Shown: positions 42,974 through 60,455 of the stretch, in pieces
Position numbering within the stretch: position 1 is the stretch's first letter
How the letters are laid out: the number at the start of each line of letters is the position of its first letter
Assembly (NCBI GenBank): GCA_964620495.1
Contig: CAZUHI010000040.1
Coordinates: 5,323-69,322, forward strand
Origin: an uncultured Rickettsiales bacterium
Lineage (GTDB): Bacteria; Myxococcota_A; UBA796; UBA9615
Direction of reading: 5' to 3'
Length of the DNA stretch: 64,000 nucleotides
Program-made: the position numbers and the translations under genes
Notes under the pieces: model-generated
Databases searched by the model: none
Seen by the model: the letters and a program-made list of their open reading frames with translations, nothing else
Told to the model about the DNA's origin: nothing

Positions 42974-43570
42974 ATGTCTCCGATCCGCACGACCCTCCTC
43001 CTGTCCGCGTTCCTCGCCCTGCTGTTCGCCGGGGGCGCCTGCGAAGGCAGCGCCATCATCGGCGGGGACGACGACGACGCGACCGACGACGACGACGCGA
43101 CCGACGACGACGACGCGGGCGACGACCTCTGCGGCCCCGAGCCCGAGCTCGACGAAGACGGCGTCGTCTACGGCGGCGAGGTGGTGATCTCCGGCAGCGG
43201 CGAGGACGCCACGTGGCGGGGCTGCGAGGTCGAGCACTGGATCGAGGACGACGAGGTCGAGTGCGTGGAGGTCTACGCGGTGACCGGCGAGGTCCGCCGG
43301 GTCACGGACGGCGGCACGATCTTCGCGCTGTCGTTCACCTACGATCCCGGCGAGTCGACCTGCGGCGAGGGCGAGGACTACACCACCTCCTACCGGGTCT
43401 CCTACCGCGGCGACACCGCGATCCTCGCCTACCGGTGGGGCCGGGGACAGCCCTGGGAGGAGTTCGCCGAGTCCGAGTTCGAAGAGACCGCCCTGGGCGT
43501 GTCCTTCGAGTACCTCAGCGAGGCGTTCGAGTGGGACGGCGACGACGAGCCCGGCAACGGCGGGTTCTGA
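42974..43570 (+). CDS. Lipoprotein with poly-Asp tether, unknown function
   Basis: 198-aa ORF. Lipobox LLFAGGAC. The tether reads DDDDATDDDDATDDDDAGDD. The body is acidic. Its stop abuts the stop of the convergent gene (TGATCA). Confidence 0.65.
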   Translation: MSPIRTTLLLSAFLALLFAGGACEGSAIIGGDDDDATDDDDATDDDDAGDDLCGPEPELDEDGVVYGGEVVISGSGEDATWRGCEVEHWIEDDEVECVEVYAVTGEVRRVTDGGTIFALSFTYDPGESTCGEGEDYTTSYRVSYRGDTAILAYRWGRGQPWEEFAESEFEETALGVSFEYLSEAFEWDGDDEPGNGGF

Positions 43571-44455
43571 TCAATACACCGCGGAGACGTTGATCGAGAC
43601 CACCGGCCCGCCCGTCTGGCGGACGATGGGGCCGAGGCCTCCCGCGATCGAGAAGCCCAGGAACCAGTGTTCGCCGAGGGCGCGGTCGTACTCGATCGTG
43701 AACCCGGCGTAGTTCGTGCCGTTGCCGATGCCGCTCACGCTGTCGTGCCGGGGCGCGGTGCCGTTGCCGACGGGGTGATGTCCGCCCAGCTTGAGGCGCA
43801 GCGAGCCCCTCTGGGCGGCCCCCACCCGGCGGCCCACCTCGGCGTTCCAGACCACCACCGTGTCCCACCCGCCGCTGCGGATCTTCACGCCCGCGCCCCC
43901 CGACACGTACATGCGGCCGAACCCCGCGCCCACGGAGAAGGCGGGCGTCACGTCCCACACCCCGGCGCCGGTGCGCAGCTCGGCGATGCGGGGGTTGCCG
44001 TCGACCACGCTGTACACGTCGTCCACGACGTCGTTGTTCAGGAGCGGGAACGTCACCCCGACCTCCGCCCCCACGGCGACGGGGCCCTTCTTGAGGACGT
44101 TGGCGCGGAGCCCGAGCGTGGGCTCGCCCACCGCGGCGTGCACCCGCGTCTCGCCGTCCCGGGGGTCCGTGAGGACGAACAGCTTCGCGGGCTCCCAGTG
44201 CACCCAGAACGCCGTGCGCGGAGCCAGCCCGTGCTCCCAGTACGTGCCCAGGAAGACCTCGTTGTAGGGGCCGTAGACGACCCGCGCCTCCTCGGTGGAC
44301 GCGTCGGCGAACTCGGGGCCCGGGTTCCACAGGAAGGCCGGCAGCCAGCGGGCGGAGAGCTTGACGTACCCGTGGTTCGGCTCGGGGACCCAGGGCCCGG
44401 CCTCGGCGGGGGCCGCGACGCAGACCAGCAGGGCCGTGAGGAGGAGCGCCCTCAC
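43571..44455 (-). CDS. Outer-membrane beta-barrel protein (last gene of the long operon)
   Basis: GTG at 44455 gives VRALLLTALLVCVAAPAEA (signal peptide) and overlaps the upstream stop (GTGA). Shows alternating beta-strand patterns. The C-terminal residues ...INVSAVY end in an aromatic residue, as in OMPs. Confidence 0.65.
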   Translation of the reverse strand: MRALLLTALLVCVAAPAEAGPWVPEPNHGYVKLSARWLPAFLWNPGPEFADASTEEARVVYGPYNEVFLGTYWEHGLAPRTAFWVHWEPAKLFVLTDPRDGETRVHAAVGEPTLGLRANVLKKGPVAVGAEVGVTFPLLNNDVVDDVYSVVDGNPRIAELRTGAGVWDVTPAFSVGAGFGRMYVSGGAGVKIRSGGWDTVVVWNAEVGRRVGAAQRGSLRLKLGGHHPVGNGTAPRHDSVSGIGNGTNYAGFTIEYDRALGEHWFLGFSIAGGLGPIVRQTGGPVVSINVSAVY

Positions 44456-45438
44456 GCGGCGCCCTCCCCGAAGCGATCGCCCGTCGCCACCACCCGGAAC
44501 TCGTCCATGGAGGCCTTGGCGGTGCCGTCGTAGTACTGCAGCCCGAAGTGCCGCTCCTGGGCGGGGGGCCAGTACCCGAGGATGGGGTCGGGGTGGGCCT
44601 GGTCCCGCAGCGACCACCAGTGGAACCCGAGCGCGCCCCCGGCGACGGCCTCCCGGGCGGCGGCCTCGAGGAACTCGCGCTGCCGGCGGGGGCTGAACAT
44701 GGCGCGGTGGGTCGGGTAGCCGATGCGCCCGATCTCGAGGTCCGGCGCCTCCTTCGCCCAGGGCCCGGCGGCGAAGACGTCGCGGGCTTCCCCGAGGGCC
44801 TCTCCCACGCGCTCCGCCATCGTCGGATCGGGGAGAACGAAGCAGGGGCGCAGGGAGAGCCCGAGGCGATCGACCCGGATGCCCGCCGCGAGCCAGCGAC
44901 GAAGCTCGACCTTCCACCCCGGCATCGAGGCGTGCACCGTCGTGCGGATCGAAGCGTCGGGCCTCGCGGCGCGCACGGCGTCCACCGACGCACGCAGCAG
45001 CCGCAGCCGGAACTCCGTGCGGCGCCAGGCCTTCCCGCGGCGGCGCCGCGTCACGAGCGACTCGTAGTGGGGCGCGGCGTTGAGCTCGTCCTCCACTCGG
45101 AACGTGTCGACCCACTCGAGGCGGCTGGCGGCGTCACCGCAGTAGGCCGCGAACCGCTCGACGTACTCGTCGTGGTCGGCGCCGCCGTCGTTGAGGACCG
45201 CGTCGGGCACCAGGTGGGGCATGCCCGGACCCAGGGCCGCTTGGACGGGGATCCCGGAGGCGCGGATGGGATCGAGGAAGTGATCGAGCGGACCCCACTC
45301 CCGGGGCCCCGGCGCGAGCCCCCCGATCCAGCGCCAGGGGACGTGGACGGTGACGCGGTTCACGCCGTTGCGCGCCAGCTCCCGGAGCTGCGCGGGCGTG
45401 ACGGGGCGGAGGACGTGGACCCCCCACTCGGTGGACAC
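44452..45438 (-). CDS. TIM-barrel glycoside-hydrolase-like protein (clan GH-A-like)
   Basis: GTG at 45438, 5 nt after the folE stop. Shows NGVNRVTVHVPW..., FRVEDELNAA (candidate acid/base Glu) and LEIGRIGYP (candidate nucleophile). The family assignment is tentative. Confidence 0.55.
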   Translation of the reverse strand: MSTEWGVHVLRPVTPAQLRELARNGVNRVTVHVPWRWIGGLAPGPREWGPLDHFLDPIRASGIPVQAALGPGMPHLVPDAVLNDGGADHDEYVERFAAYCGDAASRLEWVDTFRVEDELNAAPHYESLVTRRRRGKAWRRTEFRLRLLRASVDAVRAARPDASIRTTVHASMPGWKVELRRWLAAGIRVDRLGLSLRPCFVLPDPTMAERVGEALGEARDVFAAGPWAKEAPDLEIGRIGYPTHRAMFSPRRQREFLEAAAREAVAGGALGFHWWSLRDQAHPDPILGYWPPAQERHFGLQYYDGTAKASMDEFRVVATGDRFGEGAA

Positions 45439-45443
45439 GTGGA

Positions 45444-46031
45444 TCAGCTGCGCTGCGAGCCGTCGAGGACGGCGCGCCGGAGGTCTGCGTCGTCGGCGAA
45501 GCAGCCCAGGAACGCCGTGGACTCGATGCGACAGGGACGCCGGACGCCCCGGGCGAACACGCACATGGGGACGGCGTCGATGACGCAGGCGGCGCCCGCG
45601 GGGGCCAGGACCTGCATGAGCGTCTCGGCGACGTCGCGCGTGAGCCACTCCTGCAGCGTGAGCCGGTGGGCCACCGCGTCGAGCAACCGGACGATGCCGG
45701 AGAAGCCGATGGCGAGGCCGTCGGGCACATAGCCGATCGTCGCGCGGCCCTGGTAGGGCATGAGGTGGTGGGGGCAGGACGAGAAGAACTCGATGTCCTT
45801 CACGAGGACGAGATCGTCGGCCGTCTCGGGGAAGGGCTCGCCCAGGGCGGTGGCGGGCGAGGCCGAGTAGCCCTCGAGCAGGTCCGCCGCCCACGCCTCC
45901 GCGACCCGCGCGCCGGAGCGACGCAGGTGGGGGTTGGACGTGTCGAAGCCGGCCGCCTGGAGGAAGGTGTCGATGGCCGCGGCCATCGCCTCGGGGTCGG
46001 CGTCGCGGACGCGGGGGATGCGGTTCGTCAC
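45444..46031 (-). CDS. folE: GTP cyclohydrolase I
   Basis: 195-aa ORF with FFSSCPHHLMPYQGRATIGYVP and ...SGIVRLLDAVAHRLTLQE.... The GTG start overlaps the upstream stop (GTGA). Confidence 0.9.
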   Translation of the reverse strand: MTNRIPRVRDADPEAMAAAIDTFLQAAGFDTSNPHLRRSGARVAEAWAADLLEGYSASPATALGEPFPETADDLVLVKDIEFFSSCPHHLMPYQGRATIGYVPDGLAIGFSGIVRLLDAVAHRLTLQEWLTRDVAETLMQVLAPAGAACVIDAVPMCVFARGVRRPCRIESTAFLGCFADDADLRRAVLDGSQRS

Positions 46032-46438
46032 ACGACCTCCGCGGTCGAAGGGTGCGCCTGGGGGCGCCCCGGGGTGAGGAGCGCCTCCGGCACCGGTTCT
46101 CCCCGGTACACGACCCGGCAGTCGTCGGTCTCCCAGAGTCGGAGCTCGGTGAGCGACGGCAGGTCGGGGCGCAGGCGTCGCCAGAACCAGACCACGATCG
46201 CCTCCGCCGTGGGGTTCTCGAGCACGTCGTTGAAGCAGCTGCCGTCGGCCTCGCTGACCACTCCGCCGGCCGCGGCCTCCACGTCGTGGAAGTCGACGAC
46301 CATGCCGGAGTCCCCCGACGGGGTCCCCGACACCACCACCTCGAGCCGGTAGGAGTGGCCGTGCATGCGGAAGCAGCGCCCCACGTAGCGGGGCAGTCGG
46401 TGCGCCGCGCTGAAGCGGAAGTCGACGACGAGATCCAC
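46028..46438 (-). CDS. 6-pyruvoyl-tetrahydropterin / 6-carboxy-tetrahydropterin synthase family (PTPS/QueD)
   Basis: 136-aa ORF with FRFSAAHRL and C-x3-HGH (RCFRMHGHSY). Subfamily (QueD vs PTPS) cannot be decided by eye. Confidence 0.85.
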   Translation of the reverse strand: MDLVVDFRFSAAHRLPRYVGRCFRMHGHSYRLEVVVSGTPSGDSGMVVDFHDVEAAAGGVVSEADGSCFNDVLENPTAEAIVVWFWRRLRPDLPSLTELRLWETDDCRVVYRGEPVPEALLTPGRPQAHPSTAEVV

Positions 46439-46442
46439 GGGG

Positions 46443-48053
46443 TCAGCCCGGCTCGGCCCGGAACAGCTGCTCGAAGCCCTCGGTCTTCACCCCACGGGTC
46501 GTGAGCACGAAGCGATCCTCCGAGGTGAGGGAGCGGACCTCGATGCGGTGCGGCCAGGCACCGTCCCGGACCGGGCGGAGGTCGCCCGGGAGCACGCTGA
46601 CCACGGCGGCCCCTCGATGGAAGAGGCGGTCCTCGAGCACCGCCCCGCTCTCCGGGGCGAGGCGAAGGGCCCGCACCACGGCGTCGCCGTCCAGCTCCTG
46701 GAGGACCGCGCAGGCGCCCGGCTCCCAGCGCACCGACGCCGTCGCGGCGGGCGTCTTCAGGAGCGATACGAGCGCTGCGGGCTCGATCGTGCCCTCGGGG
46801 ACCTCGAGATCCGGGGCGCCGGTGCCGGACTCGGACGTGCTCTCCGTGGGGAGGTCGAGCTTCCAGCGCCCCTCCGCCTCGAGGTAGTCGAGCAGCGGCG
46901 TCGCCGCGGGACCGGCCACCAGCCGCACCCGCAGCTCGCCGGCCGCCCCCAGGGCGATGACTCCGTGCAGGCGCTCGCGCCGCGCGCCGATCTCCACCTG
47001 GACCTCCTGCTGGGCCAGCATCGGCACGATCGCCGCGCGCCGGTCGCGGAGGTCCTGCAGGGCGGCCCCGGCGTCGCCTCCGCCGGGCCAGTCCGCCTGC
47101 GCGACGCAGGGCTCTTCGGGGGGGGGCGCGACCGCCACCTGCTTCTGGCAGCCCGTCGCCGCGACCATCGTCACGAGGCCCGCCCCCAGGGCGAGCATCA
47201 AGGGCGACATCGTGGGCGGCGCGTAGCCGCTGCCGAGGCCGAGGCGGTCGCGGATCTTCGAGAGCGCGACGAGAGGCACGAACTCGCGCAGCAGGGTCAC
47301 CGCCGCCCGGTTGCACGTGGGCATCACCCGCTGGGGGGTCGCGGGGACCTCCACCTCGACCGTGGGCGTGCCCGCCTTCACGGCGAGGGCCAGCAGCTCC
47401 ATGTGGATGCCGATGCCGTTCTGGCGCAGGCGACGTCGCAGGACGGGCTGCAGGGGGAGGATTCGGGGGCCTCCCCAGGGGTGGGCGTAGCGCGTCTCCA
47501 CCACCGCCTCGAACACGTCCTCGACCCGCCCGTGCAGGCCGGGCGAGCGCGGGGGGCGGAAGTCGGGGTACGGGGGGGGCTCATCGCCGCGCGCGATGGC
47601 GGCCGCCTCGTCCCACTCCTTGCCCGCGATGGCTTCTCCCGGCCCGACGGCCAGCAGGATGGCCTCGGGCGCCCCCAGGTGGGCCGCGGCGAGGCCGTCC
47701 ACGACCTCCGGGGACAGGACCTCCTTGCGGGGGACAAGCGCGCCGATGAAGCCCAGCTCCCGCGCGAGGCGGAGCCCGGCCTTGAGCGCGGCGCCCTCTC
47801 CGGCGGGCGCGGGCAGCGTGAGGACCCTCGCCCCGGCCGCCTCGGCGACGCCCGAGGTCCCGTCGGTGCTCCCGTCGTCCACCACCACGACGTCCGCGCA
47901 GCGGTGGCGCAGGGCCTCGATCTGAGCGACCACCGTGGCGGCCTCGTCCCGGGGCGTGAGGACGCCGCACAGCCCGTCGAGGACCCCGTCGAGCGTGATG
48001 GTCTTGTCCGACGGCGGCGGGATGGGCGTGGTGGGCAGTCGAACTCGGGTCAC
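46443..48053 (-). CDS. Fusion: family-2 glycosyltransferase domain + internal lipobox/TM + periplasmic lipoprotein-like domain (DUF3261/LolB-like by context)
   Basis: GTG at 48053. GT2 signature VVVVDDGSTDGT...AGEGAALKAGL. An in-frame internal MSPLMLALGAGLVTMVAATGC (ATG at 47210) has no stop codon upstream. A ~255-aa beta-rich domain follows. Confidence 0.65.
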   Translation of the reverse strand: MTRVRLPTTPIPPPSDKTITLDGVLDGLCGVLTPRDEAATVVAQIEALRHRCADVVVVDDGSTDGTSGVAEAAGARVLTLPAPAGEGAALKAGLRLARELGFIGALVPRKEVLSPEVVDGLAAAHLGAPEAILLAVGPGEAIAGKEWDEAAAIARGDEPPPYPDFRPPRSPGLHGRVEDVFEAVVETRYAHPWGGPRILPLQPVLRRRLRQNGIGIHMELLALAVKAGTPTVEVEVPATPQRVMPTCNRAAVTLLREFVPLVALSKIRDRLGLGSGYAPPTMSPLMLALGAGLVTMVAATGCQKQVAVAPPPEEPCVAQADWPGGGDAGAALQDLRDRRAAIVPMLAQQEVQVEIGARRERLHGVIALGAAGELRVRLVAGPAATPLLDYLEAEGRWKLDLPTESTSESGTGAPDLEVPEGTIEPAALVSLLKTPAATASVRWEPGACAVLQELDGDAVVRALRLAPESGAVLEDRLFHRGAAVVSVLPGDLRPVRDGAWPHRIEVRSLTSEDRFVLTTRGVKTEGFEQLFRAEPG

Positions 48054-48072
48054 GGAGCGTCCTCGGTGCGGG

Positions 48073-49161
48073 TCACGCGGCCCCCACGACGGAGACCCGG
48101 AGGCCGCCGCCGCGTGCGCAGGTGACGACCAGGGCCGCGCGGCCCCGGCATCCGTCGCCGTCAGCATGAACCGGCAGGGAACGATCCGCCAGCAGCAGCG
48201 CCGCGAGGGCCACGCGGAAGGCGCCGTCCGCGGGGTGCGTGCCGACCCGCCGGTGGTGGTCCGTCCGGGGGACGTCGCGGCCGAGGGCCGTCGCCACCGC
48301 GGCCTGCAGGGCCGGGTGGTCGGGGTGGGACAGCAGCGCGACGCCCACGTCTCCGGCCGCGGTCCTTGTGGCGTCCAGGGACCGGCGAATCAGCTCCACG
48401 AGGCCGTCGAGCCGGTCCGGCAGCAGCAGCGCGGACCGCCCGGACGGCGTGGACGCGCCCCAGGACCCCAGGAAGCGCGCGCGCACCTCGGCGCCCCGGG
48501 CCGCGGCCCGATCCGGCGTCTCCAGCAGGACCGCGGCGGCGCCCTCGCCCAGGGGCTGCGCGACGCTCCAGCCCGAGGCCGCCCGCGTGGCGCGCGCGAG
48601 GGTCTCCCCCAGCTCCTCCGCCCCGCTGCCGACCCCGGCCTCGATCCAGCCCGCGGCGATGCCGTCCGCGATCCAGGCGACGGCCTCGTCCCCGCAGGTC
48701 TCGTGCCGACAGAAGGTGTGCGACGGGCCGCGCAGCCCCAGGAAGATCCCCGCGTACCCCGCCCCCGCGTTGGGGACCAGGTTCGGGAAGTCCATGGGAT
48801 TGCAGAGCGCCGGGCCCTTCGCCTTGAGGCGCGAGAGGAACTTCCAGGTCTCGGTGAGCGTGCCGTAGTCGGTGCCCACCGCGAGCCCGAGGTTCTCGAG
48901 GTCCCCGAAGCCCGCGGCGTCGTCCCGGGCGTGGGCGATCCCCGAACAGATGATCTTGCTGAGCCGATCCATGCGCCGGAAGGCCTTGCGGTGATCGGGG
49001 TACAGCGCGGCCGCCTTGTACTTCGGGAGCTTCACGCCGCCCGCCTCGGGGCCGTCTCCGATCCGGTCGGCGGAGCGGCCCGCGCGCCAGGCCTCCACGA
49101 ACTCCTCGCGGCCCGACCCCAAGGGGGAGAGGACCCCGATGGAGGTGATGAAGGCGGTCAT
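48073..49161 (-). CDS. Ketosynthase-like protein lacking canonical Cys-His-His triad (chain-length-factor-like partner)
   Basis: ATG at 49161 overlaps the KS stop (ATGA). It has a thiolase-fold layout (ITSIGVLSPLG..., GYAGIFLGLRGPSHTF). No ACxS active-site context and no HGT or GH motifs are recognisable. Confidence 0.7.
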   Translation of the reverse strand: MTAFITSIGVLSPLGSGREEFVEAWRAGRSADRIGDGPEAGGVKLPKYKAAALYPDHRKAFRRMDRLSKIICSGIAHARDDAAGFGDLENLGLAVGTDYGTLTETWKFLSRLKAKGPALCNPMDFPNLVPNAGAGYAGIFLGLRGPSHTFCRHETCGDEAVAWIADGIAAGWIEAGVGSGAEELGETLARATRAASGWSVAQPLGEGAAAVLLETPDRAAARGAEVRARFLGSWGASTPSGRSALLLPDRLDGLVELIRRSLDATRTAAGDVGVALLSHPDHPALQAAVATALGRDVPRTDHHRRVGTHPADGAFRVALAALLLADRSLPVHADGDGCRGRAALVVTCARGGGLRVSVVGAA

Positions 49162-50402
49162 CGCGGCGCCTCGTAGTCCGGCGAGGCCACGCACAGGGAG
49201 CTGTCGTTGCCGCCGAAGGCGAAGCTGTTGCTCAGGAAGACGTCGAACGCCGCGTCGCGACCGACGCCGGGCACCGGGTCGATGTCGATGTCCGGGTCGC
49301 GCTCCTCCCAGCCCGCGGTGGGCGGCAGGAACCCGGCCTCCATGCCGAGCAGCGCGGCGGCCAGCTCGACGGCTCCCGAGGCGCCGAGGAGGTGGCCGGT
49401 CTGGGACTTCGTGGAGCTTACGGGGATGTCTCGACTCCCGAAGAGTCGGCGCACGCCTCGAGCCTCGGCGACGTCGTTGTGGGGCGTCGCCGTGCCGTGC
49501 GCGTTCACGTACCCGACGTGCTCCGGAGGCACGCCCGCGTCCCGCAGGGCCGCCCCCATGGCCCGCGCGGCGCCCGCGCCCGACGGATCGGGCTGCACCA
49601 GGTGGAAGGCCTCGGCCACGTTGCCGAACCCGAGGATGCGGGCGCGGATCCGGGCCCTTCGAGCCCTCGCGGTGGCCTCGTCCTCGAGCACGAACATGCC
49701 CGCGCCTTCGCCGATGACCATCCCCTGGCGACGCGCGTCGAAGGGCAGCGGGCGCTCCGGGGCGACGAGGCTGAGGCTGTTGAAGCCGGCGTGAGTGAGG
49801 CGACACAGCGCGTCGGAGCCGCCCACCACGACGCGGGAGCAGCGGCCCGATCGGATCCACATGGCGCCGAGGCCGACGGCGTTCGTCGAGGAGCTGCAGG
49901 CGGTGGAGATCGTGGTCGCGGGTCCTCGCAGCCGCGCGGCGCGGGCGAGGAAGTCGGTGGTCGTGCCCACCGGGGTCGTGAGGAGCAGGGAGGGCGCCGC
50001 CGTGACCCAGAAGTCGTCGTCCTCGGGGGTGTCCAGGAGCTCCGACTCCGCCTCCGGGGTCCCCGCGGTGCACGTGCCGACGGCCAAGCCGGCGTCGCGG
50101 AGGTCGTCCCGGTGCAGGCCCGCGTCCTGGAGCGCCTCGGCCAGGGCCGCCAGCCCGAACAGCGCCGTGCGGCCCTGGCGCGTGGTGAGCCGGACCCCGG
50201 TGGCGCGGGCCGCGGCGCGGACGGCCGGGGTGCGGACGTCTCCCCGGATCTGGCCCGCCACCGAGCTGCGGTACGCGGACGCGTCGAACAGGTCGATCGT
50301 GCCGACGCCGCAGTCCCCCGCCCGCAGTCCTCGCCCGTACGCCTCGAGGCCCACGCCCACGGGAGCGGCGACGCCCATCCCGGTGACGACGACGGAGGTC
50401 AC
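49158..50402 (-). CDS. Beta-ketoacyl-ACP synthase (FabF/KAS II-like)
   Basis: GTG at 50402 overlaps the dehydratase stop (GTGA). Shows VVVTGMG, active-site TACSSS, NAHGTATP, KSQTGHLLGASG and SNSFAFGGN. Confidence 0.9.
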   Translation of the reverse strand: MTSVVVTGMGVAAPVGVGLEAYGRGLRAGDCGVGTIDLFDASAYRSSVAGQIRGDVRTPAVRAAARATGVRLTTRQGRTALFGLAALAEALQDAGLHRDDLRDAGLAVGTCTAGTPEAESELLDTPEDDDFWVTAAPSLLLTTPVGTTTDFLARAARLRGPATTISTACSSSTNAVGLGAMWIRSGRCSRVVVGGSDALCRLTHAGFNSLSLVAPERPLPFDARRQGMVIGEGAGMFVLEDEATARARRARIRARILGFGNVAEAFHLVQPDPSGAGAARAMGAALRDAGVPPEHVGYVNAHGTATPHNDVAEARGVRRLFGSRDIPVSSTKSQTGHLLGASGAVELAAALLGMEAGFLPPTAGWEERDPDIDIDPVPGVGRDAAFDVFLSNSFAFGGNDSSLCVASPDYEAPR

Positions 50403-50809
50403 GCCGCCTCCGGAACGCCGCGACGTACCACGATCTTGCCCTGCGCGAGCATGCGGTGATGCACCCACACCTCGCCGTCGAGCATCACCATCGGGCCGAA
50501 GGCCTTGGTCTTTCGGATCTTGATGGTCAGCCGGTCGCCGGGGCGGGGCCGACCGGACACGCGCACCCCGTCCACCGACGCGAGCAGGCCCGTCTCGGGG
50601 TCCCCGCCGGCGGCCGCGTTCGCGAGGCCGTGCCAAGCCGCCGCGGCCTGGGCCATGGCCTCGACCATCAACAGGCCGGGGAGGAGCCGACGCGACCAGG
50701 AGTCGCCGGAGCGGGGGACGTCGTAGAGGAAGAGGCCGCCGGCCTCGTCGGTCCCCGACACGGTCGAGAGGAAGAGGAACGGGTCCCGGTGGGGGATCGG
50801 GAGGTCCAC
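50399..50809 (-). CDS. Hot-dog fold 3-hydroxyacyl-ACP dehydratase (FabA/FabZ-like, ApeI/ApeP-type)
   Basis: GTG at 50809. Shows LPIPHRDPFLFL and LPGLLMVEAMAQ. Confidence 0.8.
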   Translation of the reverse strand: MDLPIPHRDPFLFLSTVSGTDEAGGLFLYDVPRSGDSWSRRLLPGLLMVEAMAQAAAAWHGLANAAAGGDPETGLLASVDGVRVSGRPRPGDRLTIKIRKTKAFGPMVMLDGEVWVHHRMLAQGKIVVRRGVPEAA

Positions 50810-50819
50810 GCCCGGGGGC

Positions 50820-51083
50820 TCAGCCCGCGGTGCGGTTTGCGTTGATGTGGTCCGTGATCGTGCGCACGGTCTGGAAGATCGCCTCGCCACGGCCCTCATC
50901 GATCGTGACGCCGTAGTTCTCCTCGATGGCGACGGCCAGCTGGAGCGCGTCCAGGGAGTCGAGCTCCAACCCTTCGTCGCCGAACAGCGCGCCGTCGGGA
51001 TCCACGTCGTCCGCTTCGTAGTCCTCCGCGAGGTTCAGAGCCTCGAGGAGCATCGCGGTCACCTGTTGCGTCGTCAGCGACAT
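50820..51083 (-). CDS. Acyl carrier protein
   Basis: ATG at 51083 (MSLTTQQV...). Phosphopantetheine attachment site LELDSLDALQL. 87 aa, acidic. Confidence 0.85.
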   Translation of the reverse strand: MSLTTQQVTAMLLEALNLAEDYEADDVDPDGALFGDEGLELDSLDALQLAVAIEENYGVTIDEGRGEAIFQTVRTITDHINANRTAG

Positions 51084-51096
51084 GCGCGGCTTTCTA

Positions 51097-53610: not shown

Positions 53611-53626
53611 GGGGGCGTCGGGGAGG

Positions 53627-55114
53627 TCAAGGGGCGGCGGAGCGCTCGGCCGGGGTCAGGAACGCGTCCGGGTCGAGGGTCGCGCCCAGCGTCAGGGCGG
53701 AGAAGACGATCACGGTGCGGTCGCCGGAGGCCTCGTCCATGGCGATGCGGCGAAGCGCGGTGGGGGTCCCGTCGATCGTCAGCTCCACCTTCACGAACAT
53801 GGCGCGCGCGGCGGGCACCCGGGGCGCGAGGGTCCACGTCCCCTCCCCGGTCGCCTCGGCCTCGAAGAAGGCCTGCAGCGTGTCCGCGTCCAGGGCGAAG
53901 AGCGACTCCATGATGCGGCCGCTCTTCTCGGCGCCCGGCAGCGCCCAGCCGCTCGCCCCGGCGCCGATCTCCTCCTGCGACTTGTCGGCCGGGTAGAAGC
54001 GCCCGTCCGCCATGAGGACCTTGGGGCCGCCGTCGTACGCCCAGATCAGCCGCCCGTCCGACCGACGCAGCTGCAGATCGCCGGTGCGCACGACCTCCTT
54101 CGCGAACAGCGCGGAGGTCTTCCGCTGCTCGAAGCGGGCCTTCACCGTGGCGTGACTCGCGAGCTCTGCGCACGCGGCCTGCAGCCCCTCGGGCAGCGGG
54201 TTCTTCCCTGCGGCGGAGGCCGAGCCGGCCGCCCCGAGCAGGAGCATCCCCACGATCAACACGGTCGCCCACTCGAGGGCGGAGCGGCGGGGACGGGTGC
54301 GGTCGACGGCCATCGGGTCCTCCAGGTACGCCGGCTCGCCCGTGAGATCCGCGACGGTCACCGCCTGCAGCCCGCGCTGCGCCAACCCGTCGAGGATGGT
54401 GGGCAGCGCGGCCAGGACCGGGGGCTCGCGAGGCGCACCGAGCGTGGCGTCGTGGAGTAGGACGATGTCTCCGCCCCGAACCTTCGAGAGAACCCGGGAC
54501 ACCACCCGGGGGGCCTCGAGGCCCCCCCCGTCGAAGGGGCGCACGGCCCAGGCCGCGACCCGGACCCCCCACCGGCGGAGGGTCGCGTACACCGGCGGCG
54601 CGATGAGACCGACCGGAGGCCGGTAGAAGCGCGGCGACACCCCCGAGGCCTCTTGCACGACGCGCATGCCCTGCTCGAAGTCGTCCGCGAACCGGCGCGG
54701 CGACAGCATCAACGACCACCGATGAGCGTGCCCGTGGAACGCCACCTGGTGCCCGCGTCGCACGATCTCGCGGGCGACCCCGCCGTGCTCCGCCACCCGG
54801 CGACCCACCACGAAGAACGTCCCCCGGGCCCCCGCCGCCTCGAGCAGATCCAACACGCGGGGCGTGGTCTCGGGGTCCGGCCCGTCGTCGAAGGTGAGGG
54901 CGACGGCGTCGCTCCGCGGGGACCGGCTGACGGCCGCGCCGAAGAGCTGCCACTGGGGGAAGAACCCGGCCCCGAAGACGAAGGCGAGCAGGCCCAACGC
55001 GCCCGCGACGTCCAGGGCCCAGAGGTCGGGGGCGAAGCGGTGGCCGGCGACGACGGTGACCAGGCCGCCCGCGAGCAGCGCAGGCCAGATCAACGTCGGC
55101 CAGGGTCGGGTCAC
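53627..55114 (-). CDS. Fusion: 2-TM anchor + NodB-type polysaccharide deacetylase + internal signal/TM + LolA-like lipoprotein-carrier domain
   Basis: GTG at 55114 overlaps the upstream stop (GTGA). Deacetylase motifs LTFDDGP and HGHAH. An in-frame MAVDRTRPRRSALEWATVLIVGMLLLGAAGSASA (ATG at 54313) has no intervening stop. A LolA-like beta-fold follows (ARFEQRKTSALF...GDLQL....RLIW.Y). Confidence 0.7.
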   Translation of the reverse strand: MTRPWPTLIWPALLAGGLVTVVAGHRFAPDLWALDVAGALGLLAFVFGAGFFPQWQLFGAAVSRSPRSDAVALTFDDGPDPETTPRVLDLLEAAGARGTFFVVGRRVAEHGGVAREIVRRGHQVAFHGHAHRWSLMLSPRRFADDFEQGMRVVQEASGVSPRFYRPPVGLIAPPVYATLRRWGVRVAAWAVRPFDGGGLEAPRVVSRVLSKVRGGDIVLLHDATLGAPREPPVLAALPTILDGLAQRGLQAVTVADLTGEPAYLEDPMAVDRTRPRRSALEWATVLIVGMLLLGAAGSASAAGKNPLPEGLQAACAELASHATVKARFEQRKTSALFAKEVVRTGDLQLRRSDGRLIWAYDGGPKVLMADGRFYPADKSQEEIGAGASGWALPGAEKSGRIMESLFALDADTLQAFFEAEATGEGTWTLAPRVPAARAMFVKVELTIDGTPTALRRIAMDEASGDRTVIVFSALTLGATLDPDAFLTPAERSAAP

Positions 55115-56997
55115 GGGGCGGTCGCCTCGCCCGCCGGCGGCCTCACCTGCCCGAAGAGATCGGCGAGCTGCTCGGCGAACCGCGCGGGCTCGGTCGTGGC
55201 GTTGGGCGACAGGTGCCGACCCGTCCACCGAACGACCGTCTCCCGGTTGAACAGCGGGCCGGACCAGGACCCGTAGCTGCGGGCCTCCCAGAATGGCGTC
55301 GAGCGCTTGAGGGACGGGGAGCCGACCCCGGGGCGACGCCCCTGAAAGCGCCAGGACTCCCGCAGCTCGAACGCGAAGAGCTGCGTGTCCACCCCCAGGG
55401 TCTCCGATGTCGCGCGCGAGGGGGCGCCGTGCCGCACCGTGGGCAGCGGCGGGGGCAGGATGCTGCCGTCCGGCCCCGCCACCGCGGCGGCGTCGACCGA
55501 GCCGGTCGCCTGCACCACGACGCGCCCGCCGGAGGCGTCCGAGATCTCCGTCGTGAGCGACTCGGCCCACGGGCCCGCCGCCCAGATCAGGTCGCCCGAG
55601 GGCACCCGCTCCGCCGGACGACCGGCGCGCTCCCACTCCCGCACCCGGGCCGCGGGGGCGCCCTGCAGGCGACCGGTGAGGCTGATCGCGAAGCGGCCGT
55701 CCTCGCCCTCCGTGGCGCGCAGGGACCAGCTCGACGCGAGCAGCTCGCCCGGCAGCCGCAGCCAACGGGCCCCTTCGGGGGCGAGCAGGACCGCCGAGCG
55801 GCCCGCCAGCAGCTCCTCCGTCTCGCCGAGCCAGGCCGAAGACAGGGCGGGATCGATGAACAACGGCCGCCCTTCGGCGACGAAGACGTCCGGCACGTAG
55901 ACCAGGGTGCGATCGAGGACCGGGACCACGCGCTCGGGGTTGGGCTCCTGCCCGTCGGTCGACGTCAACACCACCTCGGCGCGCACGTCCGCGGTCCGAA
56001 GGAGGGCCATCAGCAGGGCCGCGCGGTCGGCCGTCGTGCCGCGCTTCTCCTCGAGGGTGTACTGGGCCGACTGCGGCAGGCGCCACGTGCCGCCGCGGCC
56101 GCCGTTCGCGTCGAGCGCGGTCTCGTCCAGGGCGATGCGGGCGGCCTCGCGCACCGACGGGAGCCCACCCCCGCGGCCGAGGACGCGGCCCGCCATGCCG
56201 ATCACGGGGCCGGTGGCCCGCGCGGCGGCCAGGTACTGGAGGCGATGGTCGAGGGCCACGTCGTCCCACGCGTCGCCGGAGGTGACCACGACCTCCGGGA
56301 CCCGACCCGCGAGGCTGCGGATGCCGCCCGCGGGGGGCCGCGCCTGCACGCCCTCGAGCTCGAAGAAGACACGGAGCTTGCCGCCGTCGAGCGCCTGCTT
56401 GCGCAGCTCGGTGTCCCACCGGAGCAGCTGCACCGTGGGCTCCGCCTCGGCGAAGGACTCCACGGAGAAGACCAGCCGCTCGGCTGCGCCTGCGGGCGGC
56501 TGCACGGCGAACCGGAACGCGAAGCGGTCGTCGAGGCCGTCGATGCGGGTTCGGCGGACGCGCACCTCGGCGGTGACCTCGTCTTCGCCGGCCGGGAGCA
56601 CGACGCCGCAGCCCGCGAGGCCGCGCTCGTCCACGTCCCCGACGTGGATCTCCAGGCCGGACTCGAGCTCCTCCTCGGGATCGTCCGACTCGGCGACGGC
56701 GTCGTTCACCACCCGGCAGGACTCGCCGAGGCTGGGATCGAACTCCGCCAGCACCACCGGCGAGGGCGCGTTCGTGCGTCGCTGGATCACGGCCCTGGTG
56801 CGCAGCTCGAAGGCGTCGGGCTCGACCAGATCGAGGGTCGTCTCCACGCTGCGCAGGAGCATGGAGCCGGCGGCCGGGTTGCGGTCGCTGACGAAGAAGT
56901 GCTTCCAGCCGCCCGCGTCCACGGCGGGGCCCCGCTTGGCGCCCACGGCGGGGCTCGCGGCGAGCAGGATCAGGGCGACGGGGAGCAGGCGGCGCAT
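55111..56997 (-). CDS. Secreted DUF3857/transglutaminase-like protein, catalytic Cys apparently absent
   Basis: 628-aa ORF. Signal peptide MRRLLPVALILLAASPAVGA. The segment RGTTADRAALLMALLRTADVRAEVVL resembles the transglutaminase-core helix (G-C-x-D-FA-x-L..ALLRA.GI.AR.V) with Thr in place of Cys. Confidence 0.5.
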   Translation of the reverse strand: MRRLLPVALILLAASPAVGAKRGPAVDAGGWKHFFVSDRNPAAGSMLLRSVETTLDLVEPDAFELRTRAVIQRRTNAPSPVVLAEFDPSLGESCRVVNDAVAESDDPEEELESGLEIHVGDVDERGLAGCGVVLPAGEDEVTAEVRVRRTRIDGLDDRFAFRFAVQPPAGAAERLVFSVESFAEAEPTVQLLRWDTELRKQALDGGKLRVFFELEGVQARPPAGGIRSLAGRVPEVVVTSGDAWDDVALDHRLQYLAAARATGPVIGMAGRVLGRGGGLPSVREAARIALDETALDANGGRGGTWRLPQSAQYTLEEKRGTTADRAALLMALLRTADVRAEVVLTSTDGQEPNPERVVPVLDRTLVYVPDVFVAEGRPLFIDPALSSAWLGETEELLAGRSAVLLAPEGARWLRLPGELLASSWSLRATEGEDGRFAISLTGRLQGAPAARVREWERAGRPAERVPSGDLIWAAGPWAESLTTEISDASGGRVVVQATGSVDAAAVAGPDGSILPPPLPTVRHGAPSRATSETLGVDTQLFAFELRESWRFQGRRPGVGSPSLKRSTPFWEARSYGSWSGPLFNRETVVRWTGRHLSPNATTEPARFAEQLADLFGQVRPPAGEATAP

Positions 56998-57042
56998 CGG
57001 CGGGGAACCCTACGGTCTCGCGCCCGCGATGGCTACAGCGTC

Positions 57043-58341
57043 TTAGGGAGCGGAGTCGTCGTCGTCCGCGGCGGAGTCGTCGTCGTCCCCGAAGCACGAG
57101 TCGGGCAGGTCGTACGGGAAGCCCGCCGAGTCGTCGTCGTCGCCGACGCCGTCGAGGATCTCGAGGTCGATGCCCGAGCTGAGGCGGCGCGGGAGCGTGT
57201 CCACGAGCAGCCAGCCGGGCCGCTGCTCCAGGACCACCCCGAACATGAAGGCCAGACCGAGGTCCTGCCCGGGCGCGGTGAGCCAGACGAGGCGCTTGTT
57301 GCCGTCCGCGATGAGCAGATCGCAGGGAGCCTCTTCGGTGTAGACGAGGTCCCCGTCGTCCACCCAGCCGACCTCGGTGTAGACGGCGCCGGTGAGGTTC
57401 GGGACGGCCACCGTCTCCGAGAGGAGGTTCGCGTCCAGGGCGCCCAAGTGGTCCGCGGGAGGCGTGCCGTTCACGGGCCAGTCGATGAGGTCGTCGCGCA
57501 GGTTGTTGCTGGCCGGGGTCACGAACAGCACCGGGTTCGCGGGCGCGGCGATCTCCATCAGGCCGGACAGCGAGCCGTGCCAGGCGGCGACGAGCGAGCC
57601 GTCGGGGAACGAGATGTCGGTGTCCACGGGGACGTCGCCGCCCGTGACGGACAGCAGACGCACGCGCATCGTGAGTCCCTGGGAGCTGTTCACGCCCTCG
57701 GGGTGGTGCTCGAGGTTCAGCTCGCCGCCGAGCACGTCGCGCGCGACGTTCCAGCCGGGCCCACCGCTGCCGATCGCGTCGGTCACCGCGTCCACGTCCT
57801 TCGCGTCGATGTACACGACCCAGTCGCCGGACCCCGCGAGCAGCGTGTCGCCCGCGTTGAAGCCGCCGCTGCCGTCGCCGTCGACGTACGCGAACGGGGC
57901 GAACATGGCGGCCGAGACGCCCTTGGCGACCTCCGTGAGGAGGCCCGCGTCGACGGTCTCTTCCACGTAGTTCGCGTAGGTGGCCTGGCCCGCGACCAGC
58001 GAGACCTTCGCCGCCGCGATGAGGTCGGAGTCCCACTCTTCGCCGAACGTCGGGCCCTTCGCCTGGGCGAGGAAGAGTCCGGCGCGCACGTCGCCCGCGG
58101 GGACCGAGCCGTCTGTGGGCTGGTACGCGAGGCTGCCGCCGATGGGGATGCCCTCGGGGATGACGAGGTCGTCGTCGTTCGGGCCCGCGTCGTCGTCGTC
58201 CACGCCCGCGTCGTCGTCGTCCGTGACGTCCGGCGGCGTGGGGTCGACGGTGCCGTCTTCCGTGGGGCAGCCCTGCCAGAGGAGGAGCGCCCCGACGCCG
58301 AGGCCCAGCGTGGTCCAGAGAATGCCGCGGGAGTCGGTCAT
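57043..58341 (-). CDS. Lipoprotein with N-terminal and C-terminal poly-Asp tracts
   Basis: ATG at 58341 overlaps the Rieske gene stop (ATGA). Shows LLLWQGC (lipobox), DDDDAGVDDDDAGPNDDD, and a C-terminus DDDDSAGF...GDDDDSAADDDDSAP. Confidence 0.65.
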   Translation of the reverse strand: MTDSRGILWTTLGLGVGALLLWQGCPTEDGTVDPTPPDVTDDDDAGVDDDDAGPNDDDLVIPEGIPIGGSLAYQPTDGSVPAGDVRAGLFLAQAKGPTFGEEWDSDLIAAAKVSLVAGQATYANYVEETVDAGLLTEVAKGVSAAMFAPFAYVDGDGSGGFNAGDTLLAGSGDWVVYIDAKDVDAVTDAIGSGGPGWNVARDVLGGELNLEHHPEGVNSSQGLTMRVRLLSVTGGDVPVDTDISFPDGSLVAAWHGSLSGLMEIAAPANPVLFVTPASNNLRDDLIDWPVNGTPPADHLGALDANLLSETVAVPNLTGAVYTEVGWVDDGDLVYTEEAPCDLLIADGNKRLVWLTAPGQDLGLAFMFGVVLEQRPGWLLVDTLPRRLSSGIDLEILDGVGDDDDSAGFPYDLPDSCFGDDDDSAADDDDSAP

Positions 58342-58913
58342 AGCTTCACCATCACTCGGTTCTTCTTGATCTTGACCGCCACGCTGGCGATCGACGCGTC
58401 GGCGGATCCGCTCACGTTGGTGCCGTCGCGAACATCCCACTCCCACTCGTGGAGGGGGCAGGTGATCGTGTGCCCGTCGAGCACGCCGTCTCCCAGGGGC
58501 CCGTACGCGTGGCCGCACTCTCCCTGGGTGGCGAAGATCTCGCCGTCGACGTTGTACAGGGCGACGGACTTGCCCGCCGCGTCGACCGCCTTCGCCTCCC
58601 CGGGGATCAGCTGGTCCAGGTTCGCGACCTGCACCCACGTGCTGCCCTGGGACTCGTCCAACTCGGCGGGCTTGGCGGGCGCCGCCTTGGGCATGAACTG
58701 CGCCCCGGGCACCGGGCTCTGAGGCTTGCGCACGGCCCCGACCGAGGGCGTGGGAGGCGTGGCCGGGGCGGGCCGCTCCTTGGGGTTCTCGCGCTTGTAG
58801 GCAGGCGGACCGCCCGCGGCCACGGAGGGCGACTCGGGGGAGGTCCCGGTGTCTGCGCCGAGCGCGCCGAGGATGAGCTTCTTGATCTTCTTGCGGATAC
58901 CGAAGGGCGTCAT
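58338..58913 (-). CDS. Rieske [2Fe-2S] domain protein (NirD-like, stand-alone) with Lys-rich N-terminus and Pro-rich linker
   Basis: ATG at 58913 (MTPFGIRKKIKKLILGAL). Rieske ligand motifs C-G-H (ECGHAYGPL) and C-P-L-H (ITCPLHEWEW). Confidence 0.75.
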   Translation of the reverse strand: MTPFGIRKKIKKLILGALGADTGTSPESPSVAAGGPPAYKRENPKERPAPATPPTPSVGAVRKPQSPVPGAQFMPKAAPAKPAELDESQGSTWVQVANLDQLIPGEAKAVDAAGKSVALYNVDGEIFATQGECGHAYGPLGDGVLDGHTITCPLHEWEWDVRDGTNVSGSADASIASVAVKIKKNRVMVKL

Positions 58914-58935
58914 GGCGCGGGATGTTACCCGGGGG

Positions 58936-59355
58936 CTACCGACACCGCTCGGCGGCGGTCGCGACGAGGGCACCGAGGCGAGTCGCACGGGCGGGGTCGA
59001 GGTTGACGGCGATGCCGTAGTCCATGACGGCCTCGGCGGTCGTCTCGTGGTGATGGAGCACCCGTCGGGCGGCGAGGCGGTGGGCCCCTGCGTCCCCCCG
59101 CTCGACCCGCCCCGCGCACGCCAGCTCCGCGCTCACGCGCGCCCACCGATCGTCGTCCAGGGCGACGATCTGGTCGGGCTCGAGTTCTTCCGCCGGGGGG
59201 TCCGCGTACGTCGTCCAGTCGCCCAGCTGGAGGCCCGGCGCCTCGGGCGTGGCGGCCTCGGCCGCGGGAGGCGCCACGGCCGGCGCGACCGACTCCCCCG
59301 CCCCACTGCACGCGGACACGAGGAGGGCGGCGACGAGGAGCATGGCGCGAGTCAT
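58936..59355 (-). CDS. Small lipoprotein, unknown function
   Basis: ATG at 59355 (MTRAMLLVAALLVSACSG), or at 59343. Ala/Pro linker, then a helical domain. It is the first gene downstream of the AT-rich intergenic island. Confidence 0.55.
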   Translation of the reverse strand: MTRAMLLVAALLVSACSGAGESVAPAVAPPAAEAATPEAPGLQLGDWTTYADPPAEELEPDQIVALDDDRWARVSAELACAGRVERGDAGAHRLAARRVLHHHETTAEAVMDYGIAVNLDPARATRLGALVATAAERCR

Positions 59356-60444: not shown

Positions 60445-60455
60445 ACAGCGGTCGC

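Follow-up and report, generated by a model that had tools for sequence, protein, structure and literature searches.

A 15-gene operon of an uncultured Myxococcota-like bacterium joins an acyl-chain and export core resembling that of aryl polyene clusters to sugar and pterin genes

Introduction

Aryl polyene (APE) clusters are regarded as the biosynthetic gene cluster family with the widest spread among bacteria, and the attachment and export of their lipids are still largely matters of conjecture. According to Grammbitter et al., the core set of an APE cluster comprises the ketosynthase (KS) genes apeO/R, the acyl carrier protein (ACP) genes apeE/F, the chain-length factor (CLF) gene apeC, the dehydratase (DH) genes apeI/P, the ketoreductase (KR) gene apeQ, and the transporter gene apeM. 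In the APE lipid, GalNAc-phosphoglycerol carries the aryl polyene together with two acyl chains, one saturated and the other a non-aryl conjugated C26:5 chain; one and the same machinery also produces the latter, and addition of the GalNAc has been proposed for ApeJ (bioRxiv 10.1101/2020.12.19.423268). ApeM, ApeL, and ApeN have been proposed as the exporters of this lipid (bioRxiv 10.1101/2020.12.19.423268; PMC8253772). Its composition is a precedent for an aryl-free chain joined to an amino-sugar head group. Here, we describe a 15-gene operon in a 64-kb stretch of contig CAZUHI010000040.1 (64,000 nucleotides, referred to as the window), which shares architecture, export logic, and remote homology with the APE and flexirubin clusters.

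Two other described systems are close to this operon. A module conserved between the flexirubin and arcuflavin clusters consists of a polysaccharide deacetylase, LolA, a glycosyltransferase, an acyltransferase, and an exporter (PMC3992019, PMC3949708). In anammox bacteria, Cluster I, a candidate for ladderane synthesis, has the order amxACP-amxFabZ-amxFabF2-amxFabFmut (bioRxiv 10.64898/2026.05.19.726425). We found no report of the layout described here in the literature. Our analysis suggests that the operon most likely builds and exports an unusual sugar-bearing outer-membrane lipid.

Results

Organization of the operon

The 15 genes, termed g1 to g15 in the order of transcription, are located on the minus strand from 59355 down to 43571 and were found to be continuously coding by analysis of the G+C content at third codon positions (GC3) and inspection of start codons. 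Six of the 14 junctions are 4-nt overlaps (g2/g3, g4/g5, g8/g9, g9/g10, g12/g13, and g14/g15) and the remainder are gaps of 4–45 nt: 22 nt (g1/g2), 45 nt (g3/g4), 16 nt (g5/g6), and 13 nt (g6/g7) in the upstream half, and 10 nt (g7/g8), 19 nt (g10/g11), 4 nt (g11/g12), and 5 nt (g13/g14) in the downstream half. The g5/g6 gap becomes 40 nt when ATG 53586 is taken as the start of g6. A preliminary description, made from the sequence alone, had reported 15 co-directional minus-strand genes joined by 4-nt overlaps or gaps of at most 45 nt, and the GC3 profiles and start codons bear this out.

Since the G+C content of the window is approximately 73%, raw open reading frame (ORF) lists were full of shadow ORFs. 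Calling genes by the longest ORF was misleading at this G+C content, and third-position GC profiles and start codons were used instead. A 375-aa minus-strand ORF (59470–60597) was rejected as the shadow of a plus-strand gene. For g11, the start at ATG 48167, which gives the longest ORF and lies further upstream, was rejected in favor of GTG 48053; the resulting protein of 536 aa matches a 77%-identical ortholog in L003, the closest, 81%-identity relative (L-numbers denote loci that were compared with the operon).

The operon is bounded downstream by a convergent plus-strand gene (42974–43570) and upstream by a divergent plus-strand gene starting at approximately 59539–59572. The divergent intergenic region upstream of g1 (59356–59538) is the presumed operon promoter region, in which neither a consensus sigma-70 site nor a riboswitch was found. 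Inside the operon, a scan for promoters and terminators gave no candidate site beyond what shuffled sequences would yield, and an Rfam scan detected no RNA element or riboswitch at the operon. We concluded that the 15-gene block is a real operon of an uncultured high-GC Myxococcota-like bacterium.

Acyl-chain genes

Domains were called with Pfam and NCBIfam profiles at curated cut-offs, and the operon was compared protein by protein with the ape cluster of E. coli CFT073. Nearly all domain assignments of the preliminary description were confirmed; the match to the transglutaminase core fell below the threshold.

The gene g7 (50820–51083, minus strand, as are all operon genes) encodes a dedicated ACP with a PP-binding domain and a DSL motif at Ser43. 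This protein is closest to ApeE and NF006617, its identities being 38% to ApeE, 31% to ApeF, and 29% to AcpP. The adjacent g8 (50399–50809) encodes a FabZ/ApeP-type hot-dog protein that matches the FabA and ApeP-like families of Pfam. It retains the Glu of FabZ (VEAMAQ) and has Asp at the position of the canonical catalytic His; its orthologs, which also match Pfam ApeP-like, have Asp, Ala, or Glu at that position. Loss of the His with retention of the Glu is the pattern of ApeP, unlike that of ApeI, which carries the His in the E. coli APE cluster. No ApeI-like gene was found in the window or in the related loci. The hot-dog dehydratase named in the preliminary description is thus a hot-dog protein of the expected type, but one from which the canonical catalytic His is absent.

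The product of g9 (49158–50402) has a full KS domain with the Cys, His, His, and Lys residues all present at the FabF positions. From these intact residues, g9 is predicted to be an active ketosynthase, and it is the only one in the operon. Its top single-family match was fabF with 323 bits, which does not reach the FabF equivalog cut-off of TIGR03150 (493.75). Against the E. coli proteins, g9 scored 201 bits with FabF and 179 bits with ApeO. The protein encoded by g10 (48073–49161, 362 aa) is a KS paralog that matches the KS N-domain only. Glu occupies the Cys position (Ser in some orthologs) and Ser the first His position; since the catalytic triad is absent, g10 was assigned as a CLF-type inactive partner. 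It gave no BLAST match to ApeC, which has 240 aa.

Among PDB sequences, the top matches for g9 and for the g10 family were chains B and C of 9s5h. This entry is probably the anammox amxFabF2/amxFabFmut heterodimer, judging from its composition and from Val at the Cys position, although its identity is unconfirmed and a literature search found no paper for the code 9S5H. The similarity to it is remote (approximately 246 bits for the KS and 100 bits for the CLF profile). Cispentacin-type chemistry was also considered and rejected, as all Amc matches were weaker than the FabF matches and below the cut-off.

The functions missing from the operon were searched for in the window and, within 10 kb, in the related loci, which come from divergent species. 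No homologs of KR, AMP-ligase, lysophospholipid acyltransferase (LPLAT), thioesterase, methyltransferase, FabD, or FabH were found in the 64-kb window or in approximately 20 loci. For KR, tblastn with ApeQ and E. coli FabG gave nothing at E<1e-4 in the window and the related loci, and no adh_short domain appeared in the Pfam lists of the latter. For starter activation, there was no ApeH homolog, and AMP-binding and lyase Pfam matches were absent from the operon. The ApeD query for LPLAT had no match in the window or related loci. The lack of KR, starter ligase, thioesterase, methyltransferase, LPLAT, and a second DH, first noticed within the operon itself, thus extends to the whole window and about 20 relatives.

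Export components and two fusion proteins

The export set consists of the transporter g6, the C-terminal LolA-like domain of g5, the C-terminal LolB-fold domain of g11 behind a lipobox, and the putative barrel g15. The gene g6 (51097–53610, start TTG 53610 or ATG 53586) encodes an MMPL/RND transporter of the HAE3/HpnN-like type with approximately 830 aa, which matches ApeM at an E-value of 1e-4. Hopanoid export was rejected as its function, since hopanoid genes are absent although the MMPL protein is HpnN-like.

The product of g5 (53627–55114) is a fusion of a deacetylase (Polysacc_deac_1) and a LolA-like domain. The match to PF01522 scored 100.5 bits against a cut-off of 23.1, and the NodB motifs are intact (TFDDG at 74, HGHAH at 127, RPP at 165, and LLHD at 219). 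No equivalog cut-off (NodB, PgdA, or PdaA) was reached; TIGR04243 matched with an E-value of 1.4e-27, below its cut-off. From the N-terminus, the protein is made up of two transmembrane (TM) helices, the NodB-type domain, an internal signal-peptide-like TM segment with an AXA site, and the LolA-like domain. The positive-inside pattern around the three TM segments places the de-N-acetylase domain, as a prediction, in the cytoplasm. The C-terminal domain matches LolA, and ApeL at an E-value of 3e-4. Where LolA-like orthologs stand alone, their N-terminal signal peptide aligns with this internal TM segment, and the alignment takes in the AXA site (ASA|A, near residue 301 of g5).

The second fusion is g11 (46443–48053). 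This protein matches the glycosyltransferase family 2 (GT2) profile, and its structure model (pLDDT 86) shows an N-terminal GT-A domain, a TM helix, and a C-terminal domain of the LolA/LolB superfamily. The N-terminal fold matches the glucosyl- and mannosyl-3-phosphoglycerate synthases GpgS and MpgS and is DPM-like; the alignment with ApeJ had an E-value of 2e-4, and hhalign gave 92% across the nucleotide-binding part. Like those of g5 and g6 to ApeL and ApeM, this match is weak yet specific. The TM helix ends in a Gly-Cys (Cys302 of g11) that all 34 of the sequences compared share and that aligns with the lipobox of ApeN. When the g11 family was compared with ApeN by hhalign, the alignment was limited to this lipobox; it is thus the fold search, and not the sequence, that supports calling the domain LolB-like. 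In the GT-A domain, the nucleotide-binding DDGSxDG is conserved. Relative to the canonical GT2-DUF3261 protein P0131, DAD is replaced by PRK and TDTQSGFR by HPWGGPR, and a single semi-conserved acidic residue is left. The earlier naming of g11 as a GT2-lipoprotein fusion thus stands as regards the GT-A fold, the lipobox, and the LolA/LolB fold; the canonical DxD is absent.

Because of the TM/AXA and Gly-Cys alignments, g5 and g11 both look like cytoplasmic enzymes to which a periplasmic Lol-like domain is attached through a signal peptide that has been retained. The LolA-like carrier of g5 may be released at the retained AXA site, and the LolB-like part of g11 at the retained lipobox.

The last gene, g15 (43571–44455), belongs to an orphan family and encodes a putative outer-membrane beta-barrel. 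The signal peptide, the composition, and the C-terminal aromatic residue (…SAVY) agree with the earlier assignment as such a barrel; no family match was obtained, and the g15 family profile had no match among PDB sequences. Relaxed Pfam scans (E up to 10) of g1, g3, g14, g15, and the C-terminal domain of g11 gave nothing useful.

A GH-A barrel and pterin genes

Another orphan family is represented by g14 (44452–45438). Its structure model (pTM 0.89) matched GH5, GH1, GH53, and GH39 barrels in Foldseek (E approximately 1e-13, TM approximately 0.7). Glu116 follows the strand 112–115 and Glu235 lies within the strand 233–239, i.e., at the ends of strands 4 and 7; in 36 sequences of the family, Glu116 is invariant and Glu235 is present in at least 90%. 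At the sequence level, no CAZy or Pfam family was matched, and the family profile gave marginal glycoside hydrolase (GH) matches to PDB sequences (best E 0.004). The model indicates that g14 is a (beta/alpha)8 barrel of the clan GH-A glycoside hydrolase type, and structure prediction with Foldseek thereby confirmed the GH-like TIM barrel proposed before. Since it has no signal peptide, g14 is predicted to be cytoplasmic. The GT-A domain of g11, the de-N-acetylase of g5, and g14 thus all lack signal peptides or are on the predicted cytoplasmic side.

The gene g13 (45444–46031) encodes a canonical GTP cyclohydrolase I (FolE), with 167.3 bits to NF006826 (cut-off 162) and an E-value of 1.4e-47 to PF01227. 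Overlapping it, g12 (46028–46438) encodes a tunnel-fold protein that matches the 6-pyruvoyltetrahydropterin synthase (PTPS) profile; it scores 82.2 bits with TIGR03367 (QueD), below the cut-off of 89.25. In common with QueD/PTPS proteins (COG0720) encoded with FolE, g12 adjoins FolE and retains CxxxHGH, the zinc ligands His16/31/33, Cys27, and Glu110 (E. coli QueD numbering). In QueD/PTPS structures, Cys27-Asp70-His71 forms the catalytic triad. In contrast to these proteins, g12 lacks Asp70-His71, carries Cys73 and an HPSTA tail at its C-terminus, and is embedded in a lipid cluster. The Asp-His pair is replaced in all cluster-embedded orthologs, which share the extra conserved Cys73 and the …HPSTA tail, whereas the PTPS genes of non-cluster PTPS-FolE pairs retain it. 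These substitutions indicate that g12 is a diverged paralog and not a standard QueD or PTPS, so that of the original PTPS/QueD label only the membership of the tunnel-fold family remains.

Both g12 and g13 form cluster-specific clades. The PTPS-FolE pair is located between g11 and g14 in seven of ten informative species genomes, and no cluster locus has it without also encoding the GT-A, deacetylase, GH-A, and outer-membrane proteins. When metagenomes were scanned with FolE, all relatives with at least 66% identity and enough flanking sequence lie between g11 and g14, and the more distant PTPS-FolE pairs are outside the cluster context. No QueE, QueC, or sepiapterin reductase gene was found nearby, and the 64-kb window has no second copy of FolE or PTPS. 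Our literature searches found nothing on FolE/PTPS together with an aryl polyene, and a search for pterin glycosides gave nothing relevant.

Distribution and conserved core

The CLF-like protein g10 was used as the marker of the family, which comprises approximately 60 proteins with 44–81% identity, after which the E-values fall to 1e-11. When 1.84 billion representatives were scanned with HMMER, the g10 family accounted for only about five clusters at 50% identity; the matches beyond them graded into other CLF-like proteins, whose contexts are unrelated. The family was detected in 13 of 185,579 species-representative genomes, all of them uncultured metagenome-assembled genomes (MAGs) with a G+C content of 64–76%, labeled as Deltaproteobacteria, Proteobacteria, Myxococcota, or Rickettsiales (the last probably by default). 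One of these MAGs is from the Tara Red Sea set, and some hosts at least are marine. The annotation of each family member reads either hypothetical protein or, generically, 3-oxoacyl-ACP synthase. The families of g11 and g14 are as narrowly distributed as that of g10.

Six genes form an invariant core across approximately 20 loci, encoding the LolA-like protein, the MMPL transporter, the ACP, the ApeP-type hot-dog protein, the KS, and the triad-less CLF; in three of these loci, tblastn did not detect the MMPL gene. Most loci also have the deacetylase domain, usually joined to the LolA-like one. The gene g11 occurs together with g14 and g15, and g15 is always paired with g14. Among the extra genes listed in the preliminary description, FolE/PTPS and the genes of the GH-like and outer-membrane proteins accompany the core, and the transglutaminase-like gene does so in several loci; the Rieske and small lipoprotein genes do not.

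Further genes were observed in these scans. Many family members have two genes between the g4-like gene and the LolA-like/deacetylase gene that are absent from the window, encoding a HEAT-repeat-like protein of approximately 630–680 aa and an HD_5 or unannotated protein of 770–850 aa (L001 395–4596, L005 2187–6583, and L024 1–3796). Just downstream of the CLF gene region, the minimal variants L001 (12704–12931) and L025 (7286–7507) encode a Trp-rich protein of 73–75 aa (74% identical) with no homolog in the window operon. Approximately 60 of the 150 representatives listed in the CLF scan are KS-CLF fusions of about 730–870 aa, in which a CLF-like domain comes after a full KS. One of them (L080 10001–12601) is encoded in a cluster of type II polyene-like character, together with two ACPs, hot-dog proteins of the ApeI-like and FabA kinds, an ABC exporter, and a KR fused to a MacB-type domain.

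Comparison with described systems

Like the APE cluster (apeA-R) of E. coli CFT073 and Xenorhabdus doucetiae, the operon combines a KS and its inactive partner with an ACP of its own and a hot-dog protein of the ApeP type. In both, a LolA-like gene is directly upstream of the MMPL gene (ApeL-ApeM), and both have a GT2-type protein of approximately 550 aa (ApeJ) and a LolB-like lipoprotein (ApeN). The logic proposed for both is also common: an acyl chain built on an ACP, an amino-sugar-phospholipid, and export to the outer membrane. Missing from the operon are ApeH, ApeQ (KR), ApeI, ApeR, ApeK, ApeB, ApeD (LPLAT), ApeG, and the second ACP. The CLF gives no match to ApeC. The counterparts of ApeJ and ApeN are joined in one polypeptide, as are the deacetylase and the LolA-like domain. 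FolE, the PTPS-like protein, the GH-A barrel, the outer-membrane protein, and a pseudo-transglutaminase are added. From the APE core, an active KS and an MMPL transporter with LolA-like and LolB-like partners are present; the ApeI and ApeP heterodimer, the dedicated KR ApeQ, and aryl starter activation are not. Since KR, ApeI, starter activation, and LPLAT were all looked for and not found, the operon lies outside the APE and flexirubin families as defined. This agrees with the earlier view that the architecture is APE/flexirubin-like, as the homologies to Ape proteins confirm, and that the APE model nevertheless does not predict the product.

The deacetylase, LolA, glycosyltransferase, and exporter set of the operon is also found in the flexirubin (flxP-U) and xanthomonadin/arcuflavin (arcN-R) clusters, and the arc cluster also has an outer-membrane protein. 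Because the flexirubin and arcuflavin modules include a deacetylase, this gene is part of the known pattern and not an extra component. In those clusters, however, the deacetylase and LolA are separate proteins, and the operon lacks their phospholipid/glycerol acyltransferase, the tyrosine ammonia-lyase or chorismatase starters, the KRs, the several KSs, and DarA/B.

The four gene kinds of the anammox Cluster I (dedicated ACP, FabZ-like protein, active KS, and triad-less KS as CLF) are the same as those found here, in a setting resembling fatty acid synthesis. The radical-SAM and phytoene-desaturase-like genes of that cluster have no counterpart domain in the operon, and the MMPL, Lol-like, sugar, and pterin genes of the operon are not in Cluster I. 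The mutant KS is reportedly upstream of the active KS in anammox bacteria; the order here is the reverse, KS and then CLF. An analogy, and only that, can be drawn with the Nod factor genes nodC, nodB, nodF, and nodE, because a GT2-type protein, a NodB-family de-N-acetylase, and a dedicated ACP and KS are also present here, and the ACP/KS pair of the Nod system yields an unusual unsaturated acyl chain for a sugar amine. Unlike the Nod system, the operon has no NodA-type N-acyltransferase or chitin-synthase-type GT2, and its export genes are MMPL and Lol-like rather than NodIJ.

Upstream accessory genes and neighboring genes

The first four genes are less conserved. g1 (58936–59355) encodes a lipoprotein of 139 aa (lipobox LVSAC); this gene is present in no relative but L003. 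The 191-aa protein of g2 (58338–58913), matched by the Pfam and NCBIfam Rieske profiles, has a C-terminal Rieske [2Fe-2S] ferredoxin-type domain (CGH...CPLH) and a low-complexity N-terminal half; L003 is also the sole relative carrying a Rieske gene, which is not conserved in the family. Residues 1–90 of g2 form a Lys/Pro/Ala-rich extension (MTPFGIRKKIKKLILG...) absent from ordinary Rieske ferredoxins, which may be a membrane-association or interaction segment. In distant loci with lower G+C content (L051, L053–L055, L060, L061, L063–L065, and L074), a small Rieske ferredoxin that is 27–34% identical to g2 is encoded directly upstream of FolE. The pair in L061 (5483–6528) follows SufS, NifU, glutaredoxin, and Nfu genes and precedes a large FAD/Fe-S oxidoreductase gene. 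Because of these Fe-S assembly genes, the adjacency was not counted as evidence for a link between the Rieske protein and pterin in the operon.

The lipoprotein of g3 (57043–58341, 432 aa, lipobox LWQGC) has no family match and carries poly-Asp tracts at both ends; its orthologs are in L003 and L004. g4 (55111–56997) encodes a secreted transglutaminase-like protein of 628 aa, whose match to the transglutaminase core is 20.3 bits, below the threshold of 23. It is present in five loci, and all five orthologs have Thr or Ala in place of the catalytic Cys (GTTADRA). Because of this replacement, g4 is probably a pseudoenzyme or a scaffold.

The genes flanking the operon, encoding a PNGase-F-like protein, a class I lysyl-tRNA synthetase (LysRS), and an IcmF-like mutase, are unrelated to it. 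The 561-aa protein with a PNGase F C-terminal domain (41260–42945, plus strand) is encoded convergently to the operon end, and its position is kept in the 81%-identity relative (L003 15652–17310). The class I (archaeal-type) LysRS (36281–38203, plus strand) has 640 aa, of which about 115 form an N-terminal extension; members of this LysRS family are also encoded near the cluster in L003 and L005. At 61566–63989 (minus strand), cut by the window end, is an IcmF-like fusion of a MeaB GTPase and a methylmalonyl-CoA-mutase-type domain.

Discussion

The operon is best read as a variant of the class that combines type II polyketide-synthase-like lipid synthesis with Lol/MMPL export. We consider it somewhat more probable than its opposite that it encodes a self-contained pathway in which a specialized acyl chain and an amino-sugar head group are made and delivered to the outer membrane. 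In this pathway, the KS-CLF pair would extend malonyl-ACP units on g7, with ketoreduction and malonyl transfer borrowed from the housekeeping FabG and FabD, to give an unsaturated or otherwise unusual acyl chain. The GT-A domain would place an N-acetyl-hexosamine on a phospholipid-type or phosphate acceptor at the cytoplasmic face of the inner membrane, similarly to the proposed role of ApeJ; the NodB domain would free the sugar amine, and the GH-A enzyme would trim or remodel the sugar. The MMPL pump would then extract the lipid and hand it to the LolA-like carrier, from which it would pass via the LolB-like lipoprotein to the outer-membrane protein. FolE and the modified PTPS-like enzyme may supply a pterin as a head-group part, a cofactor, or a pigment. 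An undescribed envelope-lipid system had been raised as a possibility in the preliminary description, and the present comparison supports it.

Several points weigh against this pathway. The identity to the E. coli Ape proteins is weak (21–38%, with E-values of 1e-4 to 1e-12). Since acyltransferase, thioesterase, KR, and a starter-loading enzyme are absent from every locus, the reduction, release, and attachment of the chain are left without explanation. g8 may be no dehydratase, as the canonical His is lost and there is no ApeI-type partner, and the GT-A domain of g11 may not transfer sugars, because the canonical DxD and the catalytic Asp of TD..QSGFR are lost. The sugar and pterin parts appear as later add-ons, given that the six-gene minimal variants L001 and L025 lack them. 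No enzyme able to couple a pterin is present, and all host organisms are uncultured.

The alternative that survives best accepts the same lipid system and differs in the pterin genes: FolE and the PTPS-like gene would be housekeeping (queuosine or folate) or cofactor-supply genes lodged in the operon and not chemically involved. We regard this as possible but the less probable account. PTPS-FolE pairs without cluster genes do occur in other high-GC contigs (L035–L037 and L041–L045), and the pair is missing from three of ten informative species, as well as from L001 and L004, despite the remaining cluster. Moreover, FolE is canonical, and a pterin-attaching ligase or transferase is absent. On the other hand, every close FolE relative lies between g11 and g14, the pair is translationally coupled to its neighbors (4–5 nt), and there are no QueE or QueC genes nearby and no second copy in the window. 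The g12 clade has lost the Asp-His dyad needed for the known QueD/PTPS reactions and gained a Cys and a tail, which argues against a housekeeping QueD.

In the other direction, an outer-membrane amino-sugar lipid with a pterin decoration, together with cleavage of both fusion proteins, is a joint reading that we consider unlikely as a whole. According to it, FolE and the neofunctionalized PTPS-like enzyme may make a novel pterin that decorates the amino-sugar lipid with its polyketide-synthase-like acyl chain, the MMPL/LolA/LolB-like route would take this product to the outer membrane, and there it may be a UV-absorbing or redox-active pigment of a marine Myxococcota-like lineage. Signal peptidases I and II may cleave g5 and g11 so that each polypeptide gives a membrane-anchored cytoplasmic enzyme and a free periplasmic carrier or lipoprotein.

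That the operon is a bona fide aryl polyene or flexirubin pigment cluster, with the starter ligase, KR, ApeI, LPLAT, and thioesterase encoded elsewhere in the genome, seems improbable. The common architecture, the weak homology to ApeE, ApeP, ApeL, ApeM, ApeJ, and ApeN, and the ApeP-like Pfam matches of the hot-dog orthologs would fit such a cluster. However, none of the missing functions was found within 10 kb in approximately 20 loci of divergent species, the KS scores no better with ApeO than with FabF, and the CLF is a KS-like protein one and a half times as long as ApeC with no match to it. The top PDB matches are a heterodimer of the fatty-acid-synthase-like kind and FabF, and not polyene KS-CLFs.

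There is likewise little to recommend the idea that the Lol-like and MMPL parts handle proteins, in an unusual acylation or sorting of the operon's own lipoproteins (g1, g3, and the C-terminal part of g11), with the acyl chain ending up on a protein or a surface polysaccharide. Three lipobox proteins are encoded in the operon, LolA/LolB folds normally carry lipoprotein acyl chains, and exopolysaccharide systems typically employ enzymes of the NodB, GT-A, and GH-A kinds. Nevertheless, conservation of the core does not extend to g1 and g3, and no polysaccharide polymerase, flippase, or export (Wza/Wzc) gene is present. The deacetylase and GH-A enzyme are predicted to be cytoplasmic, unlike the periplasmic enzymes of the Pel, Psl, and PNAG systems, and the MMPL, LolA-like, and LolB-like combination is the export set of the APE lipid (PMC8253772). 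Finally, a chance placement of housekeeping type II fatty-acid genes (FabF, FabZ, and AcpP) among envelope genes, for which the top fabF family match of g9 and a PDB match to Thermus FabF might speak, is effectively refuted by the score of g9 far under the fabF equivalog cut-off, its triad-less CLF partner, an ACP closer to ApeE than to AcpP, a hot-dog protein without the catalytic His, the lack of fabD, fabG, and fabH in the window and the related loci, and a family limited to approximately 60 proteins.

The features of the operon that stand out are its dedicated and diverged pterin genes, its enzyme-Lol fusions with retained signal sequences, and its very narrow range of uncultured hosts. 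The six invariant genes are a natural minimal version that points to an irreducible unit of synthesis plus export. The fusions of the deacetylase with a LolA-like domain and of the GT-A domain with a LolB-like domain tie head-group chemistry to periplasmic hand-off and thereby give testable predictions for the Ape and Flx systems. In the literature that we searched, we found no case of a lipid cluster that had recruited a dedicated FolE and a PTPS-like enzyme with an altered active site; should the pterin belong to the product, the latter would represent a new class of membrane pigments or lipids.

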